Positions 1,415 to 59,185 of a stretch of DNA of 64,000 nt are shown here, piece after piece. Source of the stretch: Shigella phage pSb-1; the sequence record KF620435, one strand, 5' to 3'. Every line of letters begins with the position of its first letter. Position 1 is the stretch's first letter. Both the position numbers and the translations under genes were made by a program. The notes under the pieces are model-generated. The model saw only the letters and a program-made list of their open reading frames with translations. It was not told the origin of the DNA and made no database searches.

Positions 1415-1857
1415 TTAACGAGTTAGCTTATTAGCTGCAATGTAAGCATCAGCAGTAGACTGGTCACGGTTTTCTGCAACAGCACGACTACGAGCACGGT
1501 CTTCCAGTGCAGTGTTATAAGACTTAATCTGGTTGTTCAGGTTAGTGTTAGTAACACTCTTAGTAAAGTTCAACTGGTCTTTGGCTAACTTATTGGCTTG
1601 GAAACCACTGTAGATATTAGCTAATGAACCAAGTGCACCCAGTCCTAGTTGGAAGGTGGGTACGTTCATGCCCAACTGATTAGCTGAACCAGACAGGAAA
1701 GAAGTAGGGTAGATACCCCCAAATTCGTACCCATACCAATAGCTGCACCAGGGTTATAGTTCATAGCCGGGGTATTAAAGTTCTGATTGTTATTAGACAT
1801 CCAAGACATAGCAGCTGGCTGTGGGGTTTGGTTGCCTGTTAAGAATGACAAATCCAT
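1415..1857 (-). CDS. small virion protein, frameshifted (track fragments 1666..1878 and 1415..1675)
   Basis: ATG at 1857 with AGGAG RBS; the two fragments read as one protein if one C is restored in the C-run near 1716..1720. Confidence 0.35.
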
Positions 1858-1870
1858 GGGGATTCTCCTG

Positions 1871-2695
1871 TTAAACAAGGTCAGTATTAAGGGACATGTC
1901 AGAGTAGTTACCTATCATATCTAAAGACAGGTCAGCTATATCTGAGCCAGTCATGAGAGTACGTGATAAGAATGAATCCAGTGACTCCATTGACACGAAT
2001 TGCATTGGGTCAATTACACCCTGCCCAGCAGTACCAAACATTTCTTCATACTGCTTATTGATTGCCATCATATCAGTATTGTACTGCTGCATTACTCTCT
2101 CTGCTTTCTGAATAGTAGCAGCCGTAGATGCATTAATATACTGGCTAATACCATTACCTACCGAACTGGTAAGCTGCATGATGTTTTGGGCATTCATCAT
2201 TTCACTCGCTAAGGTAGACAGAGATGTACCAGTAGACAAAGCAGTACCAACATTCATAGCTACCATTGAAGCAATAGCAGCAATGATAAAGCCCAGCTTG
2301 TCCCCGAACAGTGACGTAGATACTTTAGTGATAATGGATACCAGAATCATTCCAGCAATGGCATTTGCTACAGCACCAACAATCACGGCAGCTAATCCAA
2401 CAAAACCCAGAGATGCACCAACTGCACCATATGCCCCAAGTATACCTGCACCACCAGCACCAGCTGTAAATACAGAGATAACTACAGCAACCACAACAAC
2501 AACAATCTTAAATGCCCCGGTCTGATACCATTTCTTCTTAACCTTCTTATATGAGTTCATCACTAAGTAGGAACAAGCAGTGGATAGCTGAGTACTTCGA
2601 ACCAGTGACATGGAACGGTAGATGTTAGTGTGCAGTGGAATAATGAATCCACTCTCCTCTGCATCACCCATTGCCCCGGCAACATCAATGTGCAC
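1871..2695 (-). CDS. Gly/Ala-rich multi-pass membrane protein (virion/ejection protein candidate); true start may be ATG at 2560
   Basis: Long hydrophobic runs (KIVVVVVAVVISVF, GILGAYGAVGASLGFVGLAAVIVGAV); track start is GTG; overlaps upstream ORF by 132 nt. Confidence 0.4.
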   Translation of the reverse strand: MHIDVAGAMGDAEESGFIIPLHTNIYRSMSLVRSTQLSTACSYLVMNSYKKVKKKWYQTGAFKIVVVVVAVVISVFTAGAGGAGILGAYGAVGASLGFVGLAAVIVGAVANAIAGMILVSIITKVSTSLFGDKLGFIIAAIASMVAMNVGTALSTGTSLSTLASEMMNAQNIMQLTSSVGNGISQYINASTAATIQKAERVMQQYNTDMMAINKQYEEMFGTAGQGVIDPMQFVSMESLDSFLSRTLMTGSDIADLSLDMIGNYSDMSLNTDLV

Positions 2696-4524
2696 TGACT
2701 TATTCTTATATACCTGTTATAGTGATTTAGACCCAGTACTCTGAGTTTACGGTAAGTGTTATTACCATCCTGCCAAAGTAACTCATACTCCTGCATTGAA
2801 TAGAATGTATATGTTACCTCAAGTTTCTTAGCAGAACCGGAGTTAGAAGCTGTCCTAATATTCTTACGGGTAAGGGTTATATCTCCTGCATACCTGGCTC
2901 GTAGTTGCCCCTGCTTAGCACCAGACCATGCTTGTCCTGAGTGAGTAGTTTCAAATACATAGTTCCAGCCAATAGTCATGTCATACTTGTACCGCTTATT
3001 ACTATGTATCCTAAACTCTCGCTTAGGTATAACAGGATATTCCGGTAGTGGTGGAGGAGTTCCAATAGTATGCCCTTCAGTCCTGTTCCACCATGCTACA
3101 TATTCATCAACTGCATCATTAGCTGCCTGATAACCTGCAATTACTGCTTCTAAAGTCGGGTAGGTTGGGTCAGGTGGAAATGCTTCAGTAGCCATCTGAA
3201 AGAAACGGTAAATGTATTCCTTAGCAGTATCTTCAGGAGAATTAAGAGATACACCGAATGTGCCATAAATGTACTGAATATCACCTATGTCATTATTCTT
3301 CTTAAGCTCTGTCACTACTTTATCAATTTTTCCACCAGTAGCTTTATAAAGAGCTTTCTTACAGTGTGGGTAGATTGGGTCATTTTCTACCCATTGTTTA
3401 TCATTCCTGATTGGAATGAATGGATAGAATCGGTTATCAGTAGCCTCGGTATCAAACAGTGAATCTAGTGCAACGTTACCAGAGTTCTGCTTATAGATAA
3501 GCATCTTAGGTGTACCAACAGCAGTCATCTCTGTATCAGTACGAGTAGTCTGGGATGAGTACTTACGAACCAGTGTCTCTGTGGTTGTAGTGATTGTATC
3601 AGTACGAGTAACACCGCCACCTATATCAACTACATTGGTAGTTACAGTAGTACTGGATTGGATCTCACCAAACTTTCTGTGGGTCATTACCCTGTCAGAT
3701 ACAACTACAGTTACATCATCAGGTTTCTCAGTGAATCCTCTACGATAAACCTTAACGTAGGAATTCCAGTTATCTACACTTGGTTCAGTGACGGTACTAT
3801 CCTCATCAGGTCTACCGTCAGAGTAAACAGAATGAGTATGTATAGTCTTAGTAAGGTTAGTTGTGTTAGCTGTTGTATCACTTGATACGGTAGTCCATAA
3901 CAAAGTGGAGGGTAAGTCATCCTCATCATCATAGACTGTAGTCGGTCCTACTACTGGTGGATTGGTAGAGGGAGATTTATAGAAAGAGTAATCAGCATAG
4001 AGATACAAAGCACCCGGTTCAAAGTTAGTAGGTGTGAATGTAATAGTAGAACCACCATCTAAAGAGGTCATAGTAATTTCATTGGTATCTTCATCAATGT
4101 CTATGTCGAATCGTTCCATGATTCGACTTGGGGCATTCTCATAAAGATACTGGTCACACCATTGTTCAAAATCAGCAAAGCCTATCTCTGCTGCCTGAAC
4201 ATAGACAGACTCTCCAGCAGGTGGTGTAATTTGGCCCTCTATAACAGTAGGGTCAATCTTAGCCAGTACACCTAATGAAGAACCAGCCATACCAACTTCC
4301 GAATCATAGTGGTTCTTACTCCAGCTGGAGAACAGTCGCATACGAATACCCGGCCCATTCAGATAACTATCAGAGATAGTGTCTGCCATAGTGAATCCTG
4401 TATTGGAAATAATGTTACCAATGACTACAGTCTTCATATAGTTAGGACGTTTGTGTATATCCCCTGCCATGTTATAGACAGAGGATGCTACGTATACTTT
4501 GGTCTTCCCACTGAATAAACCCAT
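2563..4524 (-). CDS. virion structural protein (653 aa)
   Basis: Long ORF in the late block; last ~45 residues are Cys/Trp-rich and may be out of frame. Confidence 0.45.
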   Translation of the reverse strand: MGLFSGKTKVYVASSVYNMAGDIHKRPNYMKTVVIGNIISNTGFTMADTISDSYLNGPGIRMRLFSSWSKNHYDSEVGMAGSSLGVLAKIDPTVIEGQITPPAGESVYVQAAEIGFADFEQWCDQYLYENAPSRIMERFDIDIDEDTNEITMTSLDGGSTITFTPTNFEPGALYLYADYSFYKSPSTNPPVVGPTTVYDDEDDLPSTLLWTTVSSDTTANTTNLTKTIHTHSVYSDGRPDEDSTVTEPSVDNWNSYVKVYRRGFTEKPDDVTVVVSDRVMTHRKFGEIQSSTTVTTNVVDIGGGVTRTDTITTTTETLVRKYSSQTTRTDTEMTAVGTPKMLIYKQNSGNVALDSLFDTEATDNRFYPFIPIRNDKQWVENDPIYPHCKKALYKATGGKIDKVVTELKKNNDIGDIQYIYGTFGVSLNSPEDTAKEYIYRFFQMATEAFPPDPTYPTLEAVIAGYQAANDAVDEYVAWWNRTEGHTIGTPPPLPEYPVIPKREFRIHSNKRYKYDMTIGWNYVFETTHSGQAWSGAKQGQLRARYAGDITLTRKNIRTASNSGSAKKLEVTYTFYSMQEYELLWQDGNNTYRKLRVLGLNHYNRYIRISQCTLMLPGQWVMQRRVDSLFHCTLTSTVPCHWFEVLSYPLLVPT

Positions 4525-4525
4525 A

Positions 4526-5368
4526 TTAGTTCAGCCCGTTGTTAGACTTCAGCTTGGTCAGAATGGTATCAATACTTGCGTTAGTGAAGCCATTCGGTGG
4601 GTTCAAGCCTTCATCAATAGTTTTCTGAGTAATCCATGCGTCAGTAAACAGCTTAGATGCTTTAACCTCTGCATCGCGTTGGTAAGAAGTAATCTGTTGA
4701 GAGTACAACTCTTTCTGTTTACCTACAGAACCAGTAACAGTAGCTCCATCGCTACGGGTATCCAGTGTCTGTGCACGTTGTGCTTCTGTCTGCTCAGTAA
4801 GCAATTTAAGCTGTTGAGGTAACATCTGGTCAGCGTTAAACAGTGCAGCACAATACGTTTCAGACTCAGTAGCAATCTTCAACTTAGTAAGAGCATATTC
4901 ACTCTTAGCAGACAGTGCCTGAATCTTAGCTAGTACAAACTGTGCTTTAGAAGTTGCCAATGTAACACGAGCAGTAACTGCCTGAATCTGTGCCAATGCA
5001 GCAGCCCAGTATGCCTGGTCACGACCAAGTAAGAACTGAACAGCATTGCTCATGCAAGATTCCATCATAGCAATGTATGCTTTGGTATATTCACCACCCG
5101 TAATACGGTTAGCTTTAAACTCAGCTTTAAGGTGATTGTGTGCAGATTCCATTAATGCATCAAACGTACCACTGCCACCTACTTCACGGGTAGTAAGGGA
5201 TTCATTGGTTATCTTAGTAATAGCACCAAAGATTGGGGAACCATCTCCACCTGGGATATCCCACTCAGGGCCAGACATATCAATATCAGGAAGGGTAAAG
5301 TCATCACCCTTAGTTAACTCTTCTAGGAGTCGGTTAGCTTCTACCTCAGCAGAACAAGACATAATCAT
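4526..5368 (-). CDS. virion structural protein (280 aa)
   Basis: Tightly packed late-block ORF upstream of the capsid gene. Confidence 0.4.
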
Positions 5369-12920: not shown

Positions 12921-13044
12921 AATATTACCGTAGTTATGTAGTTAGGAATCCCGATAGGGTTGTATCATAAGATGACTCCTAGATAATACTTAGTATGATG
13001 GAGTACATCCAGACATAGTGTCTGGTATTAACTACGAGGTAACT

Positions 13045-13671
13045 ATGTCTATTAAAGATATTTTCCAAAGTGGTAGGGATGTTGTATGCAAAATGAAGGG
13101 TGGTTTGTTGGTCGTGGGAAGTTATGGAGAACGAATAGTTTCTGCTAATAATATCTCAGAGCTTCCACCAGAACTGCTACCCATCCCACCAACAGAGTTA
13201 GAAGATACTTTCCTTCTGGACTTGTATACATGGACTGGGAACCAAGCAGTAAATGATCAGTCCTGGTTCAATTACTTTTCATTACCAGGGATAACTAAAT
13301 CACCCGGAGGTACAGCAGCCTTAACTATTGAAGAGGGTAATCTTAAGTTCCCTGTCAGAACCAGGAATACCCAAGTAATGTTCAGTGTTCGTATCTCGGG
13401 AACTATTGCAGGGGGTGCTGGTACAGCCAGGGAATGGAGAACACAAACAAGACGAATCAATGGAACTACAGTAGTAGGTTCAGACGCTAGTGTTAAAGTA
13501 CAAGGTACGGACATTGCTAACAGAGATAACGTACTAGCTACTTACACGCTTGGTTCAATGGACCCTTTCATGGTAGACGGTATTCAGTTGGGTATGCTTA
13601 ATATCTCAGGACAAGTGATCACCTTAACAGCAGTATCGGTTAGGGTAATGCAAACTGTAAACTCCATATAA
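13045..13671 (+). CDS. hypothetical protein on the opposite strand inside the late block (208 aa)
   Basis: ATG at 13045 with GAGGT RBS; own terminator at 13697..13717. Confidence 0.4.
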   Translation: MSIKDIFQSGRDVVCKMKGGLLVVGSYGERIVSANNISELPPELLPIPPTELEDTFLLDLYTWTGNQAVNDQSWFNYFSLPGITKSPGGTAALTIEEGNLKFPVRTRNTQVMFSVRISGTIAGGAGTAREWRTQTRRINGTTVVGSDASVKVQGTDIANRDNVLATYTLGSMDPFMVDGIQLGMLNISGQVITLTAVSVRVMQTVNSI

Positions 13672-13696
13672 AAAGTATTATTAATAAGTAAAAACT

Positions 13697-13717
13697 AACC
13701 CCGCCGAAGCGGGGTTT
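13697..13717. terminator. bidirectional hairpin terminator (CCCCGC-CGAA-GCGGGG + TTT)
   Basis: Perfect GC stem flanked by A-run and T-run, between converging genes. Confidence 0.6.
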
Positions 13718-13723
13718 CAAACA

Positions 13724-15267
13724 TCAATAAAGCACTTCCCATTTACCGTCTCCGGCTGAGAATAAGGTAACAAACTTACCTGCTTGTATCGTTTTTGCCG
13801 ATGATATATTTATGTTTCCACCAGGCTCTAGAATTAAAGTATTAGCGGTATCTGCTCGCAGCATAACTTTTCTCCCCCGTACATAAGCACCAGAGTTTTG
13901 TATGGTTATATTGTTTACGTCTGCCGCTCCGTTTATTTGAATTATATCTCCAGCTGAGGGTATGCTTAGGGTGGCGCCGGATGCTGACACTCGTGAGTCG
14001 TTCATTGGGTCCCATCGGGTTACGTTGTTAGCAATGATAACCCTTCTACTCTGTGTAAAAATATCATCGGTAATACCAACCGAATTGCAGTTGTTTCCGG
14101 TGACAACAACATCATAGCTATTAGGGTCAATTTGGATGGCGTACTTCTGACCGCCTCCACCACCTTTAAAGCTACCGTTAGAAACCACTATGCCTTTACT
14201 TAATCCGGTGAACGCATATCCACCAGTACCTTGTGGACCAATACTTCAGCTTGCAAATCAGCTGGCGATTTACCTTTTAGATTTCCATGAGATATGAAAC
14301 CGCTTAACGTGAACTCTTCACACGCATTAATTTCAAAGCCTAACCACCCATTAGAGTGCGATATATCACCATTTGAACTTGAACTACGGCAGTCCCCAAA
14401 ATCGAAACCAACACCAGTGTTGTTATACGACACATTGCCCGTCGACGTTATAAACGTGCCATTATAAAGCATTCCCTGGTGTGACGTTGTTGTGCCGTTG
14501 TTATAGCTTCTGTTGTTTGAAACTATTGAGTGAGACGTCTGGCAAACAATACCGTTTTGACCGTTGTTATGAGACTTGCACTCGGAGATCAATACCTGGT
14601 CAGCTACCGGTGTCGACGAGTTAGTGATGAACTGAATAGTAATTCCGTTTCCGCCGTTATCATGCGCATGAACTTTCGATATAGTGACTGGCGAGGTAGT
14701 AAACGTAGCGTTAGATAGCACAAGCCCGTCAGAATACGCGGATTGAATTTCGGTGTCCTTTATAGTTTCACCGCGAACATTTCTCAGGTAGATACCATAA
14801 CCAGAGCGAGTGCCGTCAACTAAACAGTTAGCTACCGTGTTACCACCGCCGACTGGGGTATCGCGTATTGTTATGCTGTGGCCTCCCGAAGCCTTTGATA
14901 CTACACGGTCCAGCACAACACCTGTGCGACCATTAATCATAATGTTATTGGCAGCTGAAGAACCGGACGTTCTTGTTCCATCTATAGTTACATTTACAAT
15001 CCTTACGGAGTTAGTATTGACTTGTATTAAGTCTTCAGTTGTATCACTTTTGCGAGAAATGAACCCAGGACCAAACACATCGCATGTAACACTGATGGTT
15101 GTTACTTTATATTCAATATTTGGATTTAGTTTTACAAAAAAACCATTTGTAGTCGCATAGTCTATTGCTGTCTGCAATACGTCCTGATCTGATAATGATG
15201 ACCGTCTAAAAATCTCAGGATCAACGCCTGACATAAAATAGAACCTTGGGATTATTTCACTTCGCAA
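13724..15267 (-). CDS. tailspike/tail fiber with beta-helix-like repeats, frameshifted (fragments 14200..15267 and 13724..14188)
   Basis: Repetitive Asn/Gly/Ser/Thr-rich sequence; downstream frame open from 14245 and continues the protein; one-base loss near 14225..14245. Confidence 0.5.
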
Positions 15268-15380
15268 TGAAGCATCACCAACACTAACCCACTTACCTAA
15301 CCCAGTACCCCCAGCACTTTCAGGAGTTGAACCGGAAGAAACGATTTTAGGTAACTCACCCTCCCAGCGATACTTACCTC

Positions 15381-15740
15381 CTATATGATAAGTAGTTCAT
15401 TTTTAGCATTAAGGGTAGCACCTGTATCAAATGATCCAGGTAATGTAACGTATTCTTCTCGAGATACGGCTAACTCCCCAAGGTCTACAGAACCAGCTGA
15501 ATGTACAAGTACAGCATTAGCACCAAGACTAACAGCAGTAGTACCTGGGGCAATACCAGCAGGTAGTGAATAGGATCTTTGCGTTTCTTTGTCATAAATG
15601 ACTTTATACCCACCTAAATCTACGCCAACTGAGAAGTAAACAACCTCAGACTGTTTAACACCAAACCTACGGGCAATGGCTTGTTTATTGGTAAGAATAC
15701 CAGTAGAGCCTTTACCACCTTGTGAGAACATTTCGTTCAT
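15381..15740 (-). CDS. hypothetical tail-module protein (119 aa)
   Basis: ORF in tail module. Confidence 0.3.
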
Positions 15741-15790
15741 AAGAACCTCTTTGTTTTTCTAGGAAACCCCTCCGAAGAGGGGGTTGTTTA

Positions 15791-16108
15791 TCAAGCGTAA
15801 CTTAATTCAACTACAGCACCAACGCCAACAGTACCTGTAAAAGTAATAGTAAGGTTGCTAGAGTCAGCTGCAATTGCAGTTACAACTGCTGCTGCTGCAC
15901 CACTACCTACTTGAATTTGATTATCAAGCTTACTACTTACTACAGTATTATCAGCACACATGAAAATAGCACCTATTGCTAATCCATTACCGTTGGTGGT
16001 TTTAATACGCAAGAACTCTACTAAGGTACTGCCAGTCTTGTTGAAGTTAGGGAACACTTCTTTAATGCGATACATAGGTATCTGGATAGTAGTACTGGGA
16101 CTAGCCAT
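15791..16108 (-). CDS. hypothetical tail-module protein (105 aa)
   Basis: ORF whose start overlaps the stop of the upstream tail gene. Confidence 0.3.
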   Translation of the reverse strand: MASPSTTIQIPMYRIKEVFPNFNKTGSTLVEFLRIKTTNGNGLAIGAIFMCADNTVVSSKLDNQIQVGSGAAAAVVTAIAADSSNLTITFTGTVGVGAVVELSYA

Positions 16109-18691
16109 ACCAACTTAGAATAGGGGATGAGTATGGGGAACCTGTAGCACTTGGAGTAGTAGTATAAGAGGGAGCCGATGCTCTTCCTTCCTGCAAAACA
16201 CCATCCCTGTATCTACGAATTGCCCCACCGATACCAAGTTTTACATCAAGATAATTACCAATAGTACATACTGATTGTGGAACACCTTTAGAAGAACCAT
16301 TCCAATAATTACTAATATCGATTTCTACAACATTATCCGAACCAGTGACATTAGCAAGTCGGTACTTCTGAGTCCTGAAACGACCACATAGCTTAACAAT
16401 AGCCCCGGTAGTACCCTTCACTACAGCAACATAGTTAGTATTATCAGTAGTATCATCGTAAGTACTAAGGTAGGCATCAACTACCCCACCATCAACGTTG
16501 ATGTATTCTACCGTAGCGTATTCTGCACCTAACGTACCTGTAACATTAGAATTGATAAATGTATAAGAAGCTAACGTAGCATGGTCTACAGCAGCCATAG
16601 CAAAGTTTGAGTAGTCTACGCCGTTCAAATAAAAACCAGAACCACCCGGTGAATTAGCGTAGTACCCATCAAACAGTAGACTGGTAGCGGATTGTGCATC
16701 TGCAATAGGTACTCCTTCAGCATTTGTACGTGTACCATCATAGAAGCAAGAGTGGGAAATAGTATCATTGCCACGAATGTCTTTGTGTGTTCCACGCCAT
16801 GCATTCTTACACCAGATATCATATAAACATCCACGGAAATTTATATTCTCTGTGCTGTAATTAGTAGCACTTGGGATGTAAATACCAACTGGACGGTCAC
16901 CAATGGGAGCCTCGTTACACCAAATATCTATGTTCTTAATTTGGAAGTAACGCACGGTCTCAGTGGCCATGAATACGCAGTTAATGTTAGCAGGAGCATA
17001 CCCACCAAAAACAGGTATTAAAGAAGTAATGCCTGATTTAGTGGATGTTCTTTTTGCTACACGACCCCCTGATAAATCAATTTTAAAGTGGGAACCTTAA
17101 GTAGTATGGGTGCATCAATCACAAATCTCTTACTTGAGTCTGCGGAAAAGATTCGGTTGAGGGAGTTAAACATTCTCTGGAATGCATCGGAAGAATCAGC
17201 AATACCTGTTGTGTCATCCCCGGTATAAGAGATTGCACCAAAATCTTCTACAGTAGCATTATTGGTATCTACCCGTTCCCAATACCAGTTTGAATTTACT
17301 GTCGCAATCACCCCACCATCATCGTCTGGTACTTCAGACATACCTGTAGTAGAACGAGCAATAAATTCACCACCACCAGTATCACTATTATCATAGTACC
17401 CAGACAAAAGGACACGTGCACCAGCTGAAGGTGGAACCAAAGTTCTTAGAGCAGCGAATGACTGCACACGTCCGATATTGGTAAAGCCAAGAGGAGAATT
17501 TAAACTATTTTCTAAAGTCTCCAAAGCAGACAACGCTTCACTAGGCATTGGCAATAGGTCAACTGTGATATTCCCTGGTGAGTAAGTTAACTGACCGTTG
17601 GATACAGAATTGATATAAACGTTAGTAGGTAGAGTAGGAAGACCATAAATCTTCTGCCCTACCACATCATATATGACCTTCATACCATTCAAATACTGAG
17701 TGGTATTCGTACTCAGAATAACATCATTCTCATGTACGTTAGCAGAACGAGCTACTTCCTGAACAGTACGGTCAGACATAATGAGCGTAGTGGATTCACC
17801 ACCAATCTGAATAATCAGACGGTCATTAGTAGCTAATGGCTCAGTTAATAGGATACGTTGGTTAGCAGCATCAACCGCATAAGACTTGTCTGCTAAACCT
17901 GCATAATAACGTTCGCCATTCTTATAGATAGCCGGTACAGATTCAAATGTGTAAGGAATAGCAATTACTTGCTCACCACCTGAAGCATACCCACCGTTGT
18001 ACAACCAGTTGATCTGAACCCAGTCAGATACATTAGGATTATCAGGAACTGCTGGAGTACCAGTCAGGAACAGGTGTACTTCATCACCTGGTTCTAATGG
18101 TTGAGCCAGAGTAACGGTTAGTGTAGATGCATCGTAAGTAAAACCATAGCCAACTAAGTTGGTATAGCCATCAATTACAATCATCGGTACACCAACCGTA
18201 CCAGCAGGCACTGGGATAGTGGTTTCACCACCGATAGCAGAACCATTATTATATGAGTATGGAATGTATGGAGGTGATGCTTTACCTTCGCCGTCATCTC
18301 CACCACTATCTGAATTAGAAGTGGCAACCAGAATCCAGGAACCAGTAGCGGAAGGGTCATCTGGAATTACACCTGTACGGTCACCTTCTACATACAGATA
18401 ATCTGTAACAACTCTTTTATTGGTATTGTCAAAACCATACAGTCGTACATAAGATGCACTGGTAGGTATGGCCTTCAGTTCAGTTTCTGATTGAACACCT
18501 AACACCATTCCATATTTATTTAAGAAATCATAAATGAGTTTGAGGTTACCTAGGTTGCAGTACACAGTACGAACCACATGGTAAGCATTACCAAGTAATG
18601 CATCTACCATTGGGTCATTGGAACTGTTCTGGCAGTAAGGATTGGTCCAATCCTGCTTTGCATCAAAGGGGGTATGTGCGTTCATCGCCAT
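16101..18691 (-). CDS. large tail protein (~860 aa), frameshifted (fragments 17057..18691 and 16101..16970)
   Basis: Second fragment's frame is open upstream to ~17096 and overlaps the first fragment's end; restoring one base near 17081..17088 joins them. Confidence 0.45.
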
Positions 18692-30541: not shown

Positions 30542-31758
30542 ATGCAACTGTTAACCGCTCGTGAATACCTGAAAGTAGATATTGCTAATAACTATGGCTT
30601 AGATAAAAAGACATGGGATGAACGTATTAGCTGGTTCGATGAGAATGAAGCTAACCTGCTTAATCTGGTAGATGAAGCTGAAGATTCTGCTCTGTTCTTT
30701 GCTGGTGTAAATGCATGGAAAGATATGAAAGCCGGTAAGCCTATTGGTTATGCTGTAGCTCTGGATGCTACATCATCTGGCTTACAGTTACTGGCCTGCC
30801 TGACTGGTGACCGTTCTGCTGCTGAACTGTGTAACGTAGTTAACTACATGGGAGAGAATGGTAAGCCATTACGTCGTGATGCTTATACAGTCATCTACCA
30901 CAAGATGCTGGACATCCTTGGTGAAGCATCTCGTATTAAACGTAGTGACACTAAGCAGGCAGTTATGACTGCATTCTACGGTTCAGAAGCCAAGCCTAAA
31001 GAAGTATTCGGTGAAGGTATTCGTCTCAAGACTTTTGAAAATGTAATGGAAACTGTTGCTAGTGGTCCTTGGGCACTGAACAAGTTCTTACTGCAATGTG
31101 GTAACCCGGATGCTAACCGTTACATATGGGTACTGCCTGACAACTTCCACGCTGTCATTAAGGTCATGGTTCCAGAAGTACAAACTGTTAACTTCTTAGG
31201 TAAGCCATTCGACATCACTCGTATGGTTCAGGGCACTGAAGAGAAGACTCGTATGCTCTCTGCTAACATCACCCACTCTATTGATGGATGGTGGTACGTG
31301 AGATGCTGCGTCGTTGTAACTTCGACCGTGACTTAGTGGAAGCTGTGCGAGAACTCTGCGATGAAGGTCCATCAGAATATGGGGAAATTGCAGGTAATCT
31401 GGAGAAGGTACAGGAGTTATGGAGCCATTATGAGAAATCTGGCTTCTTATCCTTATCAATCCTGGATTATCTTGACCCATGTACTATTGCTTATGTAGAT
31501 CGTCAGGTAGTAGCAGATATGATTGACACTATGCCTAAGAAACCATTCCCTGTAATGACTGTACACGACTGCTTCCGTTGCCATCCTAACTACGGTAATG
31601 ACCTGCGTCGTCAGTACAATCAGATTCTGTCTGACATTGCTAAGAGTGACCTACTGGGCTTCATCCTGTCTCAGGTACTGGGACAAGAGTTCTCTGCTGG
31701 TAAGCTGGATGACAGCCTCTGGCAGGACATCCTTGAAACAGACTATGCATTAAGTTAA
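30542..31758 (+). CDS. phage RNA polymerase II, large subunit (T7-like palm/fingers), frameshifted (fragments 30542..31336 and 31288..31758)
   Basis: ALDATSSGLQ (motif A), RSDTKQAVMTAFYGS (motif B), VMTVHDCF (motif C); frame change after HSIDG near 31286..31290. Confidence 0.7.
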
Positions 31759-33743: not shown

Positions 33744-33947
33744 ATGGCAAGCATTGACTCCTTGACCGTATGTAATTCACGTCAAGCTCGTAACTTTATT
33801 ATCCGTGCCCTAAAAGCAGGCAACGTACCGTTCCTGACTTCATCACCCGGCATGGGTAAATCTGCAATCATTCGTTCTATTGCAGAAGAATTTGGCATGA
33901 AGCTGATAGACCACCGTCTATCTACTTCTGCCCCGGAAGACCTTAAC
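33744..33947 (+). CDS. MoxR-like AAA ATPase, exon 1 (Walker A)
   Basis: SSPGMGKS P-loop; frame ends at TAA 33948..33950 just after EDLN, where MoxR-type proteins continue. Confidence 0.6.
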
Positions 33948-34816
33948 TAATAGGGCTTTGTGGGGGTGACCTCACATCGAAAGCTATCTAAATGGGGAAA
34001 CTCCTACTATTACAGGGAAACCATGATACACTCTGGTTTCCCAATAGAGGACAATCCCATGCTAAATATTAATGAAAGTTGGAAAGACATTGTTGGTTAT
34101 GAAGGTTACTATGAAGTCTCTACGCATGGTCGCGTTAGAAATACCCGTACAGGTATGATAAAGAACCAATGTGTACAGACTAGCGGTAAGTATCTACAAG
34201 TCAGTTTGTGGAAAGGCAACAAAGAAAAAAGATGTTTAATACATCGCTTAGTTGCTATAGCCTTCATTCCTAACCCTGAAGACAAGCCTCAAGTAAACCA
34301 TTTAGACAAAAATGATAAGAACAACCATGTTCAAAATTTGGAATGGGTAACCATATCCGAGAATCATTTACATGCATTTGCTAATGGTAGAAAAGGCTCC
34401 AAATCCCGACTAGGTGAAAAAACTAGTAAAGCCTCTCAGTACCGATATGTGTACTGGGATACCAAAAGAGCTGTTTGGAAAGCATCTATAAAGATAGATG
34501 GCAAAACAGTAAACATTGGTAGATTCAATACTGACCTAGAGGCAGCTTTAGCCGCTGATGAGGCAATTGATTCCTGGGGCTGGGATAGAATTAAAAACTT
34601 TCAATAATTAAATGCCTAACGACTATCGAAAACACGTAGTGATACGGAAGTGAGTAGAGTAGGGTGCAAGCCAATGGCACTCGAAAAGATAGCCACCCGG
34701 ACAGGTAAAGCTGAGGGTGTTGATATAGTCTGGTCTGCGTAGTAATACGTAGCTGTATATGTCCAACTCGCATATACGGGTAGAGCCTTGCAAACTCTAC
34801 TGAACATAACGTAGTG
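33948..34816 (+). mobile_element. group I intron (IA2-like) with HNH homing endonuclease ORF; boundaries within a few nt
   Basis: Splits the ATPase gene between Walker A and Walker B; second exon has no start codon; GACTAT (34619..34624) pairs with ATAGTC in GATATAGTCTGG (~34746..34757), as in P7 of T4 td-type introns. Confidence 0.6.
34059..34607 (+). CDS. intron-encoded HNH homing endonuclease (NUMOD4 + HNH + AP2-like)
   Basis: WKDIVGYEGYYEVSTHGRVRN; HRLVAIAF...NHLDKNDKNNHVQNLEWVTISEN; C-terminal YRYVYWDTKRAVWKASIKIDGKTVNIGRF; AGAGGA RBS before ATG 34059. Confidence 0.7.
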   Translation: MLNINESWKDIVGYEGYYEVSTHGRVRNTRTGMIKNQCVQTSGKYLQVSLWKGNKEKRCLIHRLVAIAFIPNPEDKPQVNHLDKNDKNNHVQNLEWVTISENHLHAFANGRKGSKSRLGEKTSKASQYRYVYWDTKRAVWKASIKIDGKTVNIGRFNTDLEAALAADEAIDSWGWDRIKNFQ

Positions 34817-35664
34817 GTCTGCCATTCCGTAATGGTGACCGTGCAGAGTTTATTCCATTCGCTGACTTATTCCCTATTGAAGGGGATGAAGTACCAGAAG
34901 GATATAACGGGTGGCTCCTGTTCCTTGATGAGTTCCCATCCGCTCGTAAAGAAGTAATAGCTGCTGCATACAAACTAATTCTAGACCGTATGACAGGTCA
35001 GAAAAAACTTCATCCTAATGTGATGATTGTCTGTGCTGGTAACAAAGCTACTGACCGTGCCATTGTTAACCCGCTAGGCACTGCAATGCAGTCTCGTGTG
35101 GTCCATTTTGAAATGGAACTTAACTTCGACATCTTTGTTGAAGACGTAATGATTCCTCAACAATGGGATGAACGTCTGGTTGCATTCTTACATGCTAACC
35201 CTGGTTATCTGCATGACTTCGACCCGGCCCATAAGAACAAAACATTCTGTTGTCCTCGTACTTGGGACTTTGTTAATAAAGACCTCAAGAACCAGCCAGA
35301 AGGTGCTCTTCCTGATGAAGATTCCATCTACTATGCAGGTCACGTTACTGCTGGTAAGGCTACAGAATTTGTTCAGTTCACTCAGGTATATAATCGTATC
35401 ATTACGATTGAAAAGGTAGTCAAAGACCCACTGGGCTGTGCACTACCGGAAGATAACAACCTGTGCTGGGCTACCGTTAACCATCTGGCTAACAAAACTA
35501 CTGAAGAGAACTTTGTTGATGTTCTTCAGTACATTGAACGCTTTAAAACGTTCACCCATAAGATTCTGTACTTCCGTACAGTAGGCAATGCATTACCAGA
35601 TCTTCAGGCTACTCCTGAATGGCGTAAGGCTGCTGCTAATATCTCTCGTTACATTCACGGATAA
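34816..35664 (+). CDS. MoxR-like AAA ATPase, exon 2 (Walker B onward)
   Basis: In-frame continuation GLPFRNGDRAEF...GWLLFLDEF (Walker B) with no initiation codon until far downstream. Confidence 0.6.
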   Translation, partial: GLPFRNGDRAEFIPFADLFPIEGDEVPEGYNGWLLFLDEFPSARKEVIAAAYKLILDRMTGQKKLHPNVMIVCAGNKATDRAIVNPLGTAMQSRVVHFEMELNFDIFVEDVMIPQQWDERLVAFLHANPGYLHDFDPAHKNKTFCCPRTWDFVNKDLKNQPEGALPDEDSIYYAGHVTAGKATEFVQFTQVYNRIITIEKVVKDPLGCALPEDNNLCWATVNHLANKTTEENFVDVLQYIERFKTFTHKILYFRTVGNALPDLQATPEWRKAAANISRYIHG

Positions 35665-35671
35665 TCACAAC

Positions 35672-36845
35672 ATGAACCAATTTCCTCAGCACACACTTAG
35701 TGATGAACAACTCATGCGTGAGTACGACCGTATTCAGGCTAAGGCGTTTCTTGGACGCAGTGCAGCGTTCTTTGGTTCATTACTGTGTAGTCTTAAGTTC
35801 TCATGGAATCGTGAGAATTGTCCCACTGCATGTACTGATGGGATAGAACTCCATTTCAACCCAGACTTCTTTATCTGGATGTGTCCAGATGCAAGAGAAA
35901 CAGTGTTAATGCACGAACTCTGGCATGTGGCATATCTACATGACATCCGTCGTGGAAGCCGTGACCCAGAAGTCTGGAACCAGGCATGTGACCACTTCAT
36001 TAACCTTCAGTTAGAAGAAGATGGTTACAAGTTCACTGGCATTGATAAAGGCATTTGCAAAGACCCTCAATATAAAGGATGGGTCGAAGAAGACATCTAC
36101 GATGACCTGATGAAGAACCTCAGAAAAGGCAGAAGCCGTCTGGGGGTGCTGGAGCTGGTCTTGCTGGCGACATGAAATCCCCACTTCGGGGCAGTCCCAG
36201 GGTGCTGTTGTCAACAACGTAGTACGTGCAATGCAGAGCCAGAAGATGGCTGGTGGACAGATGCCCGGTAAAGGTGCTGGTCGTATGGAAGAGGTTATTA
36301 CCCAATTCCTTAAACCAGTGGTTCCATGGCAGGAAGTTCTGATGAACTTCTTTACCGACATTGATGACACTCACTATACGTGGGCCAGGCCTAACCGTCG
36401 TTACACTGACATTTATCTACCTTCCCTGGAAGATGATGAAGGACGCTTACGACACTTAGCTTATTTTGAGGATGTATCTGGTTCTATTAGTAGTGCTGAT
36501 TCTCTGCGTTTTAACTCAGAGGTTGCCTATGTTAAGAGCCAGTTCAATCCTAAGAAGATGTCCCTAATTACCTTCGACGATGTTATCCAGGAAGAGATAG
36601 ACATCACTGAAGAAGATACTTTTGAAGAGATTAAGATTACAGGTCGTGGTGGTACAAGCCTTGTGCCTGTACGAGATTGGATTATTAAGAATAAGCCAAC
36701 CGCTGCAATCATATTCTCCGATATGTATGTTCGTCCAATGGAAGAATTGCCATTTGATATCCCCATCATCTGGTGTGTTCTGAATAATCCCAATGCTACC
36801 GTACCTTTTGGGGAGGTAGTTCATATCCCTAAAGGAATGAAATAA
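35672..36845 (+). CDS. metallopeptidase (HExxH) - von Willebrand A domain protein, frameshifted twice (~36142..36146 and ~36178..36182)
   Basis: HELWHVAYLH zinc-binding motif; C-terminal vWA-like region; three frames link through a G-run and a C-run in a Gly-rich linker. Confidence 0.5.
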
Positions 36846-46868: not shown

Positions 46869-48177
46869 ATGTTTTCCAAACCTACCAAAGCCCCACTGAA
46901 CAAGGGGCAAGAAGCGGTTGCGAAGGAGTTCTTCGACTTCCTGCTCGACCCTAATGCTACCGAATTCAATATTAGTGGCCCAGGGGGAACTGGCAAGACA
47001 TTCCTGATGTCGCACCTCATTGATGACACTATGCCTGCATATATGGAAACTTGCTCCCTTATGGGAACCAAGCCTCTGTATAACGAAGTGTTATGACTGC
47101 GACCACGAACAAGGCTGCTGAAGTTCTGGCTCAGGCTACTGGACGCCCAACGTCTACCTATCACTCCTTCCAGGGCTGATTGTTAAGAATGACTTTAAAA
47201 CTGGTGAGGCTAATGTCGTACCTTCTAAGTCATTCAATATTAAGAAGAACAAAATCATCTTCGTAGATGAAGCATCCATGATTGACCGTCAGTTACTTAA
47301 GTATGCTCGTGAAGGTACTCACCAGTGCAAACTGGTATTCGTAGGTGATGCTTCTCAGCTTCTGCCTGTTAAAGAGAATAAGTCTCCAGTGTATGCAGGC
47401 AATATCCCAACACACTATCTGACTGAACAGATGCGTACCGATGCACCGGAACTTAAAGCATTGCACCAGCAATTGCGTGATACGGTAGAAGGTAAGACAG
47501 GCTTCCTGCCTATTAAATGTATTCCAGGCATCATTGACTGGGTACAAGGAGAAGAGATGGAGAAACTGGTTCTCAGTCACTTCACTCAACCTACCAACAG
47601 CCGTATTGTTGCTTACACGAATGATCAGGTTATTAATTACAATAACTACATTCGTGAAGCTAATGGCTACGTGGGCGAGTACTCCATTGGTGAACAGTTA
47701 GTATCTAACTCTGCTGTTCGCTTGGGTGTGGAAGACCGTCTGTCTATTGAACAAGACGTAAAACTCATTGACCAGGATAGTAGTACTCGCATGATTCCAG
47801 TTACAGGTGATCTGGAACTAGAAGTTCGTGATAGTACTCTGGACCTTGGTTATGGTGGTATTGTAAGTGAAGTTCCAGTACCTACTGACCCAGAATACTT
47901 CAACCGTTTGGTTAAGTGGCTAGGTAAAGAGAAGAACTGGGAACCTTACTTCCGTCTTAAAGAAACCATCCCAGACCTACGTGCTACTCATGCATGTACT
48001 GTCCATAAATCGCAAGGCTCTACTTACGACACAATCTTCATTGATGCAGATGACCTCTCAAGCTGTCGCCAACCAGATATGGTTGCTCGTCTGCTTTACG
48101 TCGCTGTGTCTCGTGCCCGTAAGCGAGTAGTGTTCTATGGCAATCTTGCCAGTAAGTACGGTGGTCTAACTTTCTAA
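46869..48177 (+). CDS. Dda/RecD-like SF1 DNA helicase, frameshifted twice (~47084..47096 and ~47170..47179)
   Basis: Walker A GPGGTGKTF (frame 1), TATTNKAAEVL...TYHSFQG (frame 2), IIFVDEASMI Walker B and TVHKSQGSTYD (frame 3). Confidence 0.7.
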
Positions 48178-55849: not shown

Positions 55850-56646
55850 ATGTCATTGTTCAGTAATCTGAAAGAAAAAACCAAAAACGTTGAAGCTGTT
55901 AAAGACTCCCTGGGTGGTGGTGGCTTCGGTGCAAAAGAATCCGATATCTACACCGGTACTGTAAAAGTAGCTTACGTAGGTAAAGCTGACTCTGGTGCAG
56001 ACTGGATGCAGTTAATCATTGAAGACCTGAAAAACTCAGATGGCGTACCTGCCGGTGAGTTCCGTGCTCAGGTGTACTTCACTTCTGGTAATGCTAAAGG
56101 CAATAAGCGACTTACGAGAAGAACGGTAAAGAGTACTTCCTGCCTGGCTACACTGTCATTAATGACATGATGCTGATGGCTACTGGTTGTGAACTGCCAG
56201 ATGCAGACTTCGAAGAGAAGATCGTTAAAGTCTACGACTTCGATGCTAAAGCAGAAGTTAATAAATCCGTCATGGTTCCAGTTGATCTGGTTGGTCAGAC
56301 TGTTACCTTCGCTCTGGAAAAAGTTCTGGAATCCAAGCAGGTTAAGGGTGACAACGGCTACGTTGACTCTGGTGAAACTCGTGAAGTAAACGAGATTCAG
56401 AAAGTGTTTCACCCGGAACTGCTGGTCACAGTCGTCGAGGCTCAGGAAGCAGAGAAGGCTGAGAAAGAACTGACCCCAGAACTGGCTGTATTCTACGCAG
56501 CATGGCTGGAAAAGAACAAAGGTAAAACCCGTGATAAGACCAAGGGTTCTGCTGGTGGTAATGGTAAAGGTGGCTTGCCTCCTAAACCAGGTGCTGGCAC
56601 GAGTACTACTCCTGCTGGTGGTAAATCACTGTTCGGTAAACGTTAA
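55850..56646 (+). CDS. single-stranded DNA-binding protein candidate (N4 gp45-like), frameshifted near 56103..56106
   Basis: Fragments 55850..56170 and 56167..56646 join if AA becomes AAA at ~56103; Gly-rich C-terminal tail. Confidence 0.4.
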
Positions 56647-59100: not shown

Positions 59101-59185
59101 GCCCACTTAGCTCAATGGTAGAGCGCAGGAAAGCTTCGAGAGAACAAGGTGTCTGTGGTCACTGGTTCGAATCCAGTAGTGGGTA
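59101..59185 (+). tRNA. tRNA-like element 3 (type II length); anticodon arm not foldable by eye
   Basis: Acceptor GCCCACT/AGTGGGT, D-arm GCTC-AATGGTA-GAGC, T-arm ACTGG-TTCGAAT-CCAGT; 35-nt middle with no canonical 5-bp stem. Confidence 0.4.

Follow-up and report, generated by a model that had tools for sequence, protein, structure and literature searches.

Introduction

Classic examples of group I introns in bacteriophages are those of the td and nrdB genes of phage T4. The td intron of Vibrio phage pVa5 is another classic example (PMC5746245), and in the N4-like Vibrio cholerae phages JA1 and VchO139-I the homologue of N4 gp24 is reported to be split by an HNH gene, and N4 itself to be without homing endonucleases (PMC3670811). 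N4 genes 24 and 25, recorded as 'unknown' and 'vWFA domain', respectively, are counted among the core genes of N4-like phages, 14 in all, and in N4 are middle transcripts (PMC4193335). Here we describe the gp24/gp25-type gene pair in a stretch of 64,000 nucleotides (nt) of Shigella phage pSb-1 (sequence record KF620435; the whole stretch is hereafter the window), where the gp24 homologue, encoding an AAA+ ATPase, is divided into two exons by an 868-nt insertion with the features of a group I intron, and where the gp25 homologue, encoding a protein with a zincin-like domain and a vWA domain, follows directly downstream.

Pairs of a MoxR AAA+ ATPase and a vWA protein are known chaperone systems, among them NorQ/NorD, CbbQ/CbbO, RavA/ViaA, midasin and a pair of Acidianus two-tailed virus (PMC7159879). 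Recent NorQ/NorD structures offer a concrete model of how such a pair may act, in which a finger of the vWA protein enters the ATPase pore, the linker is remodelled (PMC13036017) and the client is bound at the metal-ion-dependent adhesion site (MIDAS). All components of the window locus are of known kinds, namely a conserved gene pair, a mobile group I intron and assembly errors, and a few records already annotate a gp24 homologue as split by an intron; new details are the insertion site reported here and a pattern of three such sites in one gene. Taken as a whole, our explanation of the interval as a conserved operon of gp24/gp25 type in an N4-like coliphage (Gamaleyavirus), with the intron and the errors that it carries, appears highly probable.

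Results

An insertion splits the ATPase gene

The open reading frame (ORF) that begins at 33744 has only 68 codons and stops at 33950; an ORF for an HNH endonuclease comes next, and the rest of the ATPase follows in another frame. Alignment with the intron-less ATPase genes of the related phages IME11 and Bp4 (1053 nt) reveals one clean insertion of 868 nt, and tblastn with the IME11 ATPase places residues 1-67 at 33744..33944 and residues 68-350 in exon 2. The sole placement of the insertion that keeps the ATPase protein is 33944..34811: exon 1 ends ...GAAGACCT at 33943, the intron reads UAACUAAUAGGG...CAUAACG, and exon 2 begins TAGTGGTCTG at 34812, while the intron-less target of the IME11 type is ...GAAGACCTTTCTGGCTTACC.... 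The insertion thus falls in codon 67, within the conserved motif PEDL/SGLP (here and below, a slash marks the insertion site), and its removal joins GAC CT/T AGT GGT CTG to restore EDLSGLPF, identical to the intron-less proteins, in a spliced product of 350 amino acids (aa), as which the ATPase should be annotated. The original prediction had described an uninterrupted ATPase gene running up to the vWA gene, and so overlooked the intron-split ATPase, the most notable feature of the interval; the outer limits that it gave, an AAA+ ATPase gene starting at 33744 and a gene with DUF2201_N and DUF2201 (vWA-like) domains ending at 36845, agree with the ORFs and the Pfam matches. At both ends the insertion follows the rules for group I introns, with a U before the 5' splice site (exon 1 ends ...GACCU) and a G as the last intron base, and P1 can form between the exon sequence AAGACCU and the internal guide sequence (IGS) GGGCUUU, with a terminal G.U pair at the splice site.

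The window is assigned by its sequence to Gamaleyavirus, the N4-like Escherichia coli phages within Schitoviridae. The segment 33700..36900 matched 57 phage records, nearly all of them Escherichia phages of this genus, at 92-95% identity, and the window is about 94% identical to PW8 and IME11. PW8 is the only record that covers this entire query, whereas most of the others cover 73% of it and are therefore without about 870 nt. In the annotation of PW8, IME11 and Bp4 the local order is small ORFs, ATPase, VWA-like protein and dCTP deaminase, and in the Bp4 record the ATPase and vWA genes bear a note of similarity to N4 gp24/gp25. The window pair has the order and position of N4 gp24/gp25, in the middle-gene region and with dCTP deaminase downstream, and differs in the intron that its gp24 homologue carries; of the earlier placement of the pair in the early/middle region, the middle part agrees with the N4 transcripts (PMC4193335). 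The ATPase was found by tblastn in 744 phage records, mainly N4-like; distant copies occur in rV5-like and jumbo phages, and 'MoxR ATPase' is the annotation of some of these. In the Bp4 record (Bp4 locus 1545..4254), 1-nt frameshifts peculiar to it interrupt the ATPase gene as well as the vWA gene.

The insertion has a covarying group I core

Read beside related introns, the window intron displays a full IA-type core by sequence comparison. Its core pairings are P3 (GCUAUC/GAUAGC), P4 (AUGGGG/UCCCAU) and P7 (GACUAU/AUAGUC), and they are accompanied by an extended P5 arm, a P6 from which the ORF is looped out, P7.1, P7.2, P8, P9, P9.1 and P9.2. P6 includes pairing between the opening and the closing codons of the endonuclease ORF. 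In a sensitive DNA search the 3' non-coding part of the intron (34600..34815) matched 244 phage records. The matches that we inspected lie in genes annotated as split, namely the terminase genes of Pseudomonas phage KIL1 and of rV5 and the thymidylate synthase gene of Dickeya phage JA29, or bear explicit labels, 'ATPase split by intron' in Klebsiella phage Pylas and 'HNH homing endonuclease' with 'Phage intron' in U1G. These introns share with that of the window the same core (AACGACUAUC...GAGUAG...UCGAAA...GAUAUAGUCU) and the same helices with compensatory changes, and their ORFs are of the same endonuclease family.

For an analysis of covariation, the helices of eight introns were taken by position from invariant anchors and concatenated into a 130-nt skeleton. 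Across these introns 99.7% of the cells are paired in P2, P3, P4, P7, P7.2, P8 and P9, the P3/P7 pseudoknot included, and 25 of the 41 pairs have changed on both sides, that is, in a compensatory manner. The observed covariation values were reached in none of 500 shuffles, a control in which partners were slid by 1-3 columns gave about 38% (30-40%) pairing, and the elements GAUAUAGUC and AACGACUA are invariant.

Several points weigh against this assignment. On the intron, Rfam model RF00028 scores 26.8 bits (E 6e-4), under its gathering score of 50, and Rfam run at the gathering threshold over the whole window and the Gamaleyavirus phage NAN33P5 returned a single tRNA and no intron. The covariation skeleton was built by hand: fillers stand in it for the loops, P5 and P6, and the best pairing decided the choice of P2 and of one P4 register. 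The low RF00028 score is attributable to the 549-nt ORF in P6, which forces misalignment: the match spans 34463..34752 and is forced through the ORF, with the J8/7-P7 element GAUAUAGUCU and P9 aligning well, and the homologous but ORF-less terminase intron of KIL1 attains 94.7 bits on the same model and an rV5 intron 84.9 bits. As for the skeleton, P3, P7.2, P8 and P9 were taken by anchor position alone, and all of them covary. Given the U and G at its boundaries, the exact restoration of the motif and the covarying core, we read the 868-nt insertion as a group I intron of the P1-P9 ribozyme fold.

The ATPase and its zincin-like/vWA partner

The ATPase residues G38-K39-S40 (Walker A), D106-E107 (Walker B), N144 (sensor 1) and R162 (arginine finger) are invariant in 36 homologues. 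An AlphaFold2 (AF2) model of the spliced protein (pLDDT 89.3), searched with Foldseek, gave NorQ chains of NorQ/NorD complexes or the Rubisco activases CbbQ as its ten best matches (E about 4e-8 to 2e-6; TM 0.5-0.67 to these targets), dynein, MCM and Lon standing lower in the list, and a profile built from the 36 homologues matched midasin AAA domains at 1.4e-4, weakly and as the only sequence matches in the PDB. The model predicts a beta-hairpin (70-81) after helix 64-68 and a strand (131-133) before strand 137-144; a helix-2 insert and a hairpin before sensor 1 define the clade of MoxR, midasin and the chelatases (PMC7159879). From these fold neighbours and the gene context we call the ATPase MoxR-like.

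Sequence families speak less clearly: Pfam gives the generic AAA family (PF00004) only, at 24.4 bits, with neither AAA_3 nor AAA_5, and NCBIfam models match neither the ATPase nor the vWA protein. An ATPase of a generic or other AAA+ type (clamp-loader-like, McrB-like or dynein-like), beside which the vWA gene would lie with no functional meaning, is an alternative that we consider unlikely. It could draw on this lone Pfam match, a weak PHROG match to a clamp loader (1.8e-4) and the presence of MCM, dynein and Lon among the fold matches, but NorQ and CbbQ fill the top of the same list, the best sequence-profile match, midasin, belongs to the same clade as MoxR, and the model has a hairpin after helix 2 and a strand pair before sensor 1. 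The records of distant homologues, moreover, say MoxR ATPase, and a vWA gene adjoins the ATPase gene in every Schitoviridae locus inspected (PW8, IME11, Bp4, Mimir124, PGN829.1, U1G, Pylas and one contig from ENA), both being core genes of N4-like phages (PMC4193335). The label 'MoxR-type' of the original prediction thus holds for the fold and not for the Pfam family, and the pairing of a MoxR-like AAA+ ATPase with a vWA protein, which it had also proposed, is upheld by the fold matches and the adjoining vWA gene.

The partner gene begins 7 nt past the ATPase stop and should be annotated as one product of 391 aa. From the N-terminus its layout is an HExxH domain, then a linker rich in Gly, and lastly a vWA domain that has a complete MIDAS motif (DxSxS ... 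T ... D) and resembles the MIDAS domains of NorD and midasin. The HExxH motif and the DUF2201 affiliation were correctly foreseen, in that HELWHVAYLH is encoded at 35912..35941 with HExxH invariant in 35 homologues, and Pfam matches both DUF2201_N and DUF2201. Searches of PDB sequences with the vWA protein gave no significant match. In PHROG 1314 and in the records of Mimir124, PGN829.1, U1G and Pylas this DUF2201 zincin-like/vWA protein is called 'HNH endonuclease', a label that is wrong and is a propagated misannotation.

Set beside the known systems, the window ATPase is closest in fold to the NorQ and CbbQ of the NorQ/NorD and CbbQ/CbbO pairs, and its partner resembles NorD and midasin in having a MIDAS-bearing vWA domain and a flexible linker between domains. 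It differs from NorD and CbbO in the N-terminal HExxH domain (DUF2201_N) that takes the place of their N-terminal regions, and the locus departs from MoxR pairs in that the ATPase has about 140 aa of additional helical sequence at its C-terminus, that Pfam AAA_3 and AAA_5 do not match it, and that no gene for a metallo-enzyme client is evident near the window pair. A reading of the pair as a defence system was rejected, as no PADLOC defence-system family matches the ATPase or the vWA protein.

The intron-borne endonuclease

The ORF of the intron encodes an endonuclease with Pfam matches to NUMOD4 (2.3e-13, 50.6 bits against a cut-off of 23.4) and HNH_3 (9.9e-8, 31.9 bits; cut-off 24.8) and to a C-terminal AP2-like domain slightly under its cut-off (6.5e-7, 30.0 bits; 33.3), and PHROG families of HNH endonucleases match it with a best value of 1.6e-44. 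It is 98.9% identical to the ORF of the PW8 intron and 34-37% identical to the endonucleases of other ATPase introns. Since its GAGGA ribosome-binding site lies in the 3' strand of P5, the folded ribozyme could mask it.

GenBank annotates the PW8 locus as ATPase, HNH endonuclease and ATPase, and small free-standing HNH genes do adjoin the ATPase gene in Bp4 and Mimir124, where they lie between it and the vWA gene (Mimir124 locus 3358..3834). The 868 nt might by this token, and with the Rfam score below gathering, be a free-standing homing-endonuclease gene that leaves the ATPase as two polypeptides, acting in trans or not at all. We hold this to be quite improbable, and rejected it, because the roughly 320 nt of non-coding sequence around the ORF make up a complete and covarying group I core, and because the boundaries conform exactly to the U and G rules and restore the conserved motif. 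The 5' end of exon 2, besides, has neither a start codon nor a ribosome-binding site, its first ATG lying 178 nt in, and related introns at three sites in ATPase genes each have a guide sequence complementary to their own 5' exon.

Recurrent insertion in the ATPase gene

The group I intron at the PEDL/SGLP site (site 1) was found only in the window and PW8 among 50,697 phage records, and scans of IMG/VR and the JGI metagenomes for exact copies of P9.1 and of the exon/intron junction at site 1 gave no match, scans that divergent copies would escape. The window and PW8 share 98.7% identity over the intron and 100% over its 3' core, compared with 95.5% and 90.7% over the flanking exons; an intron more alike than its exons fits recent lateral spread. 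The first 18 nt of exon 2 show 5-6 synonymous differences between intron-plus and intron-less alleles, as expected for a disrupted endonuclease target and/or co-conversion.

Pylas, U1G, NAN33P5 and the V. cholerae phages JA1 and VchO139-I resemble the window in that their gp24 homologue is a split gene. The places of insertion differ: U1G, NAN33P5 and ENA contig ERZ15184941 NODE_26 have an intron at the Walker B site (LLFL/DEF), and NAN33P5, which is without the site-1 intron, has two introns in its ATPase gene (locus 1859..2740 and 3075..3939), the second site being CCPR/TWDF. The introns of these sister phages at both sites follow the U and G rules and have HNH endonuclease genes of their own. 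Within a single genus, three sites of the ATPase gene are occupied by introns whose cores are closely related, whose guides are retargeted and whose endonucleases are about 35% identical, and all three sites lie at or next to the most conserved alignment columns (P64, D66, G69 and P71; D106 and E107; R216). The window adds the third of these sites to a core phage gene, with introns at or next to conserved motifs.

On this evidence we lean towards the view that one family of group I introns has settled repeatedly in the gene for the gp24-type ATPase of N4-like phages, a hot-spot, and that the site-1 intron would be a recent, still-mobile and rare member of that family. If true, the three sites would form a natural series showing how an intron and its endonuclease jointly gain new target sites. 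Another intron may be present in PW8 (PW8 locus 3713..5300), whose annotation reduces the gene for a Sak4-like annealing protein to a short fragment and then shows a gene for an HNH endonuclease and a gap; the Sak4 gene of the window is uninterrupted.

Frame breaks in the vWA gene

The two breaks in the reading frame of the vWA gene both cross the Gly-rich linker. When the whole window is compared with PW8 and IME11, it stands apart from both by at least 16 deletions of a single base, plus one insertion, most of these indels lying in homopolymers of 2-5 nt. As traced by tblastn with IME11 proteins, such indels split the genes for the terminase large subunit, virion RNA polymerase (twice), the single-stranded DNA-binding protein (SSB), an exonuclease, a helicase (twice), ThyX, the large subunit of RNA polymerase 2 (RNAP2), a subunit of RNA polymerase 1 (RNAP1) and three virion proteins; deletions of this kind break at least 11 other window genes. 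No viable phage could carry all these broken genes, and the two breaks in the vWA gene are read, from this comparison of sequences, as consensus errors of the assembly and not as biology. The assembly appears deletion-biased, with roughly one error per 4 kb, and needs polishing, as indels at this density break essential genes. The earlier diagnosis of two homopolymer errors in the Gly-rich linker, made as sequencing or assembly errors, is strengthened by the scatter of the same type of deletion through essential genes; the range given for them, 36130..36190, leaves the first break just outside.

Both deletions are present in the window sequence and an ATG-initiated ORF of 204 aa spans the vWA domain, so that one might take the breaks as real, the gene being a pseudogene or being translated, from the ATG at 36231, into no more than the C-terminal vWA part. 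This is very improbable: like deletions break the terminase, virion RNA polymerase, SSB, helicase, ThyX and RNA polymerase subunit genes, which a viable phage could not tolerate, while PW8, IME11, NAN33P5, Mimir124, PGN829.1 and the ENA contig have an uninterrupted ORF of 391 codons, the closest protein cluster is of 391 aa (799 members), and the vWA gene is in the core set of N4-like phages (PMC4193335). Programmed ribosomal frameshifting, for which the position of both breaks in short homopolymer runs inside the linker might be cited, has next to no likelihood, given that relatives encode the same amino acids in a single frame, that the ribosome would have to shift frame twice, 61 nt apart and the same way each time, and that the same type of indel is scattered over unrelated genes. 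Programmed frameshifting and a pseudogenised vWA gene were both rejected, with relatives intact and essential genes equally broken.

A model for the locus

The gene structure, the intron boundaries and fold, the domain content and the conservation of catalytic residues allow a model to be outlined. The intron would excise itself from the middle-gene transcript and so restore the 350-aa ATPase, and the HNH endonuclease would cut intron-less alleles during co-infection, through which the intron could spread by homing. For the gene pair, the original prediction had suggested a role in host remodelling or virion maturation. By analogy with NorQ/NorD, CbbQ/CbbO and RavA/ViaA (PMC13036017; PMC9976466; PMC7159879), the ATPase may assemble into a hexameric ring and engage the vWA protein, whose MIDAS would bind a target protein by an acidic residue or peptide; ATP hydrolysis could then pull the flexible Gly-rich linker, with remodelling of both partner and target, and the HExxH domain might be positioned to cleave or process that target.

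Features of the locus and of the rest of the window

Table 1. Positions in the window of the ATPase exons, the intron and its elements, the vWA gene and the indels.
Feature	Position	Strand	Remarks
ATPase exon 1	33744..33943	+	residues 1-66 and two bases of codon 67; bases 1-200 of the IME11/Bp4 genes
Walker A, SSPGMGKS	33840..33863	+	in ATPase exon 1
Group I intron, 868 nt	33944..34811	+	IA-like with P7.1/P7.2; insertion relative to IME11/Bp4; ribozyme core
IGS, GGGCUUU	33953..33959	+	intron element
P2	33960..33975	+	intron element; GNRA loop
P3 5' strand	33983..33988	+	intron element
GAGGA ribosome-binding site of endonuclease	34048..34052	+	inside P5 3' strand
HNH homing endonuclease gene, 182 aa	34059..34607	+	looped out of P6; NUMOD4, HNH_3
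P7 5' strand, GACUAU	34621..34626	+	intron element
P3 3' strand and P8 5' strand	from 34688	+	intron element
J8/7 and P7 3' strand, GAUAUAGUC	34722..34730	+	intron element
P9	34735..34752	+	intron element; GNRA loop
P9.1	34755..34777	+	intron element
P9.2	34780..34800	+	intron element
Terminal G of intron	34811	+	intron ends ...AUAACG
ATPase exon 2	34812..35664	+	third base of codon 67 to stop; bases 201-1053 of IME11
Walker B, LLFLDE	34915..34932	+	in ATPase exon 2
DUF2201_N (zincin-like) and vWA (DUF2201) gene, N4 gp25 homologue	35672..36845	+	391 aa with two missing bases restored
HELWHVAYLH (HExxH)	35912..35941	+	in DUF2201_N
Frame break 1	36118..36119	+	CCC to CC relative to PW8 and IME11; 1-nt deletion
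Frame break 2	36179..36182	+	CCCCC to CCCC relative to PW8 and IME11; 1-nt deletion
MIDAS, DVSGS	36471..36485	+	in vWA domain
Other window-specific indels	2714, 7888, 20687, 22278, 24479, 25409, 31285-31288, 39674	n/a	relative to PW8 and IME11
Other window-specific indels (continued)	47089, 47175-47177, 51610, 52738, 56107-56108, 60247, 63915	n/a	relative to PW8 and IME11

Elsewhere in the window, a tRNA-like gene at 59101..59185 (+) scores 54 bits on Rfam RF00005 and has canonical acceptor, D and T arms, with an anticodon-arm region of 30 nt as against the usual 17; ARAGORN called no tRNA anywhere in the window. Possible readings are a pseudo-tRNA, a further assembly error, or a small insertion or intron within the gene. 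The region from about 13030 to 18335, between structural and tail genes, has little or no nucleotide similarity to PW8 and is probably a swapped host-range or tail-fibre module.

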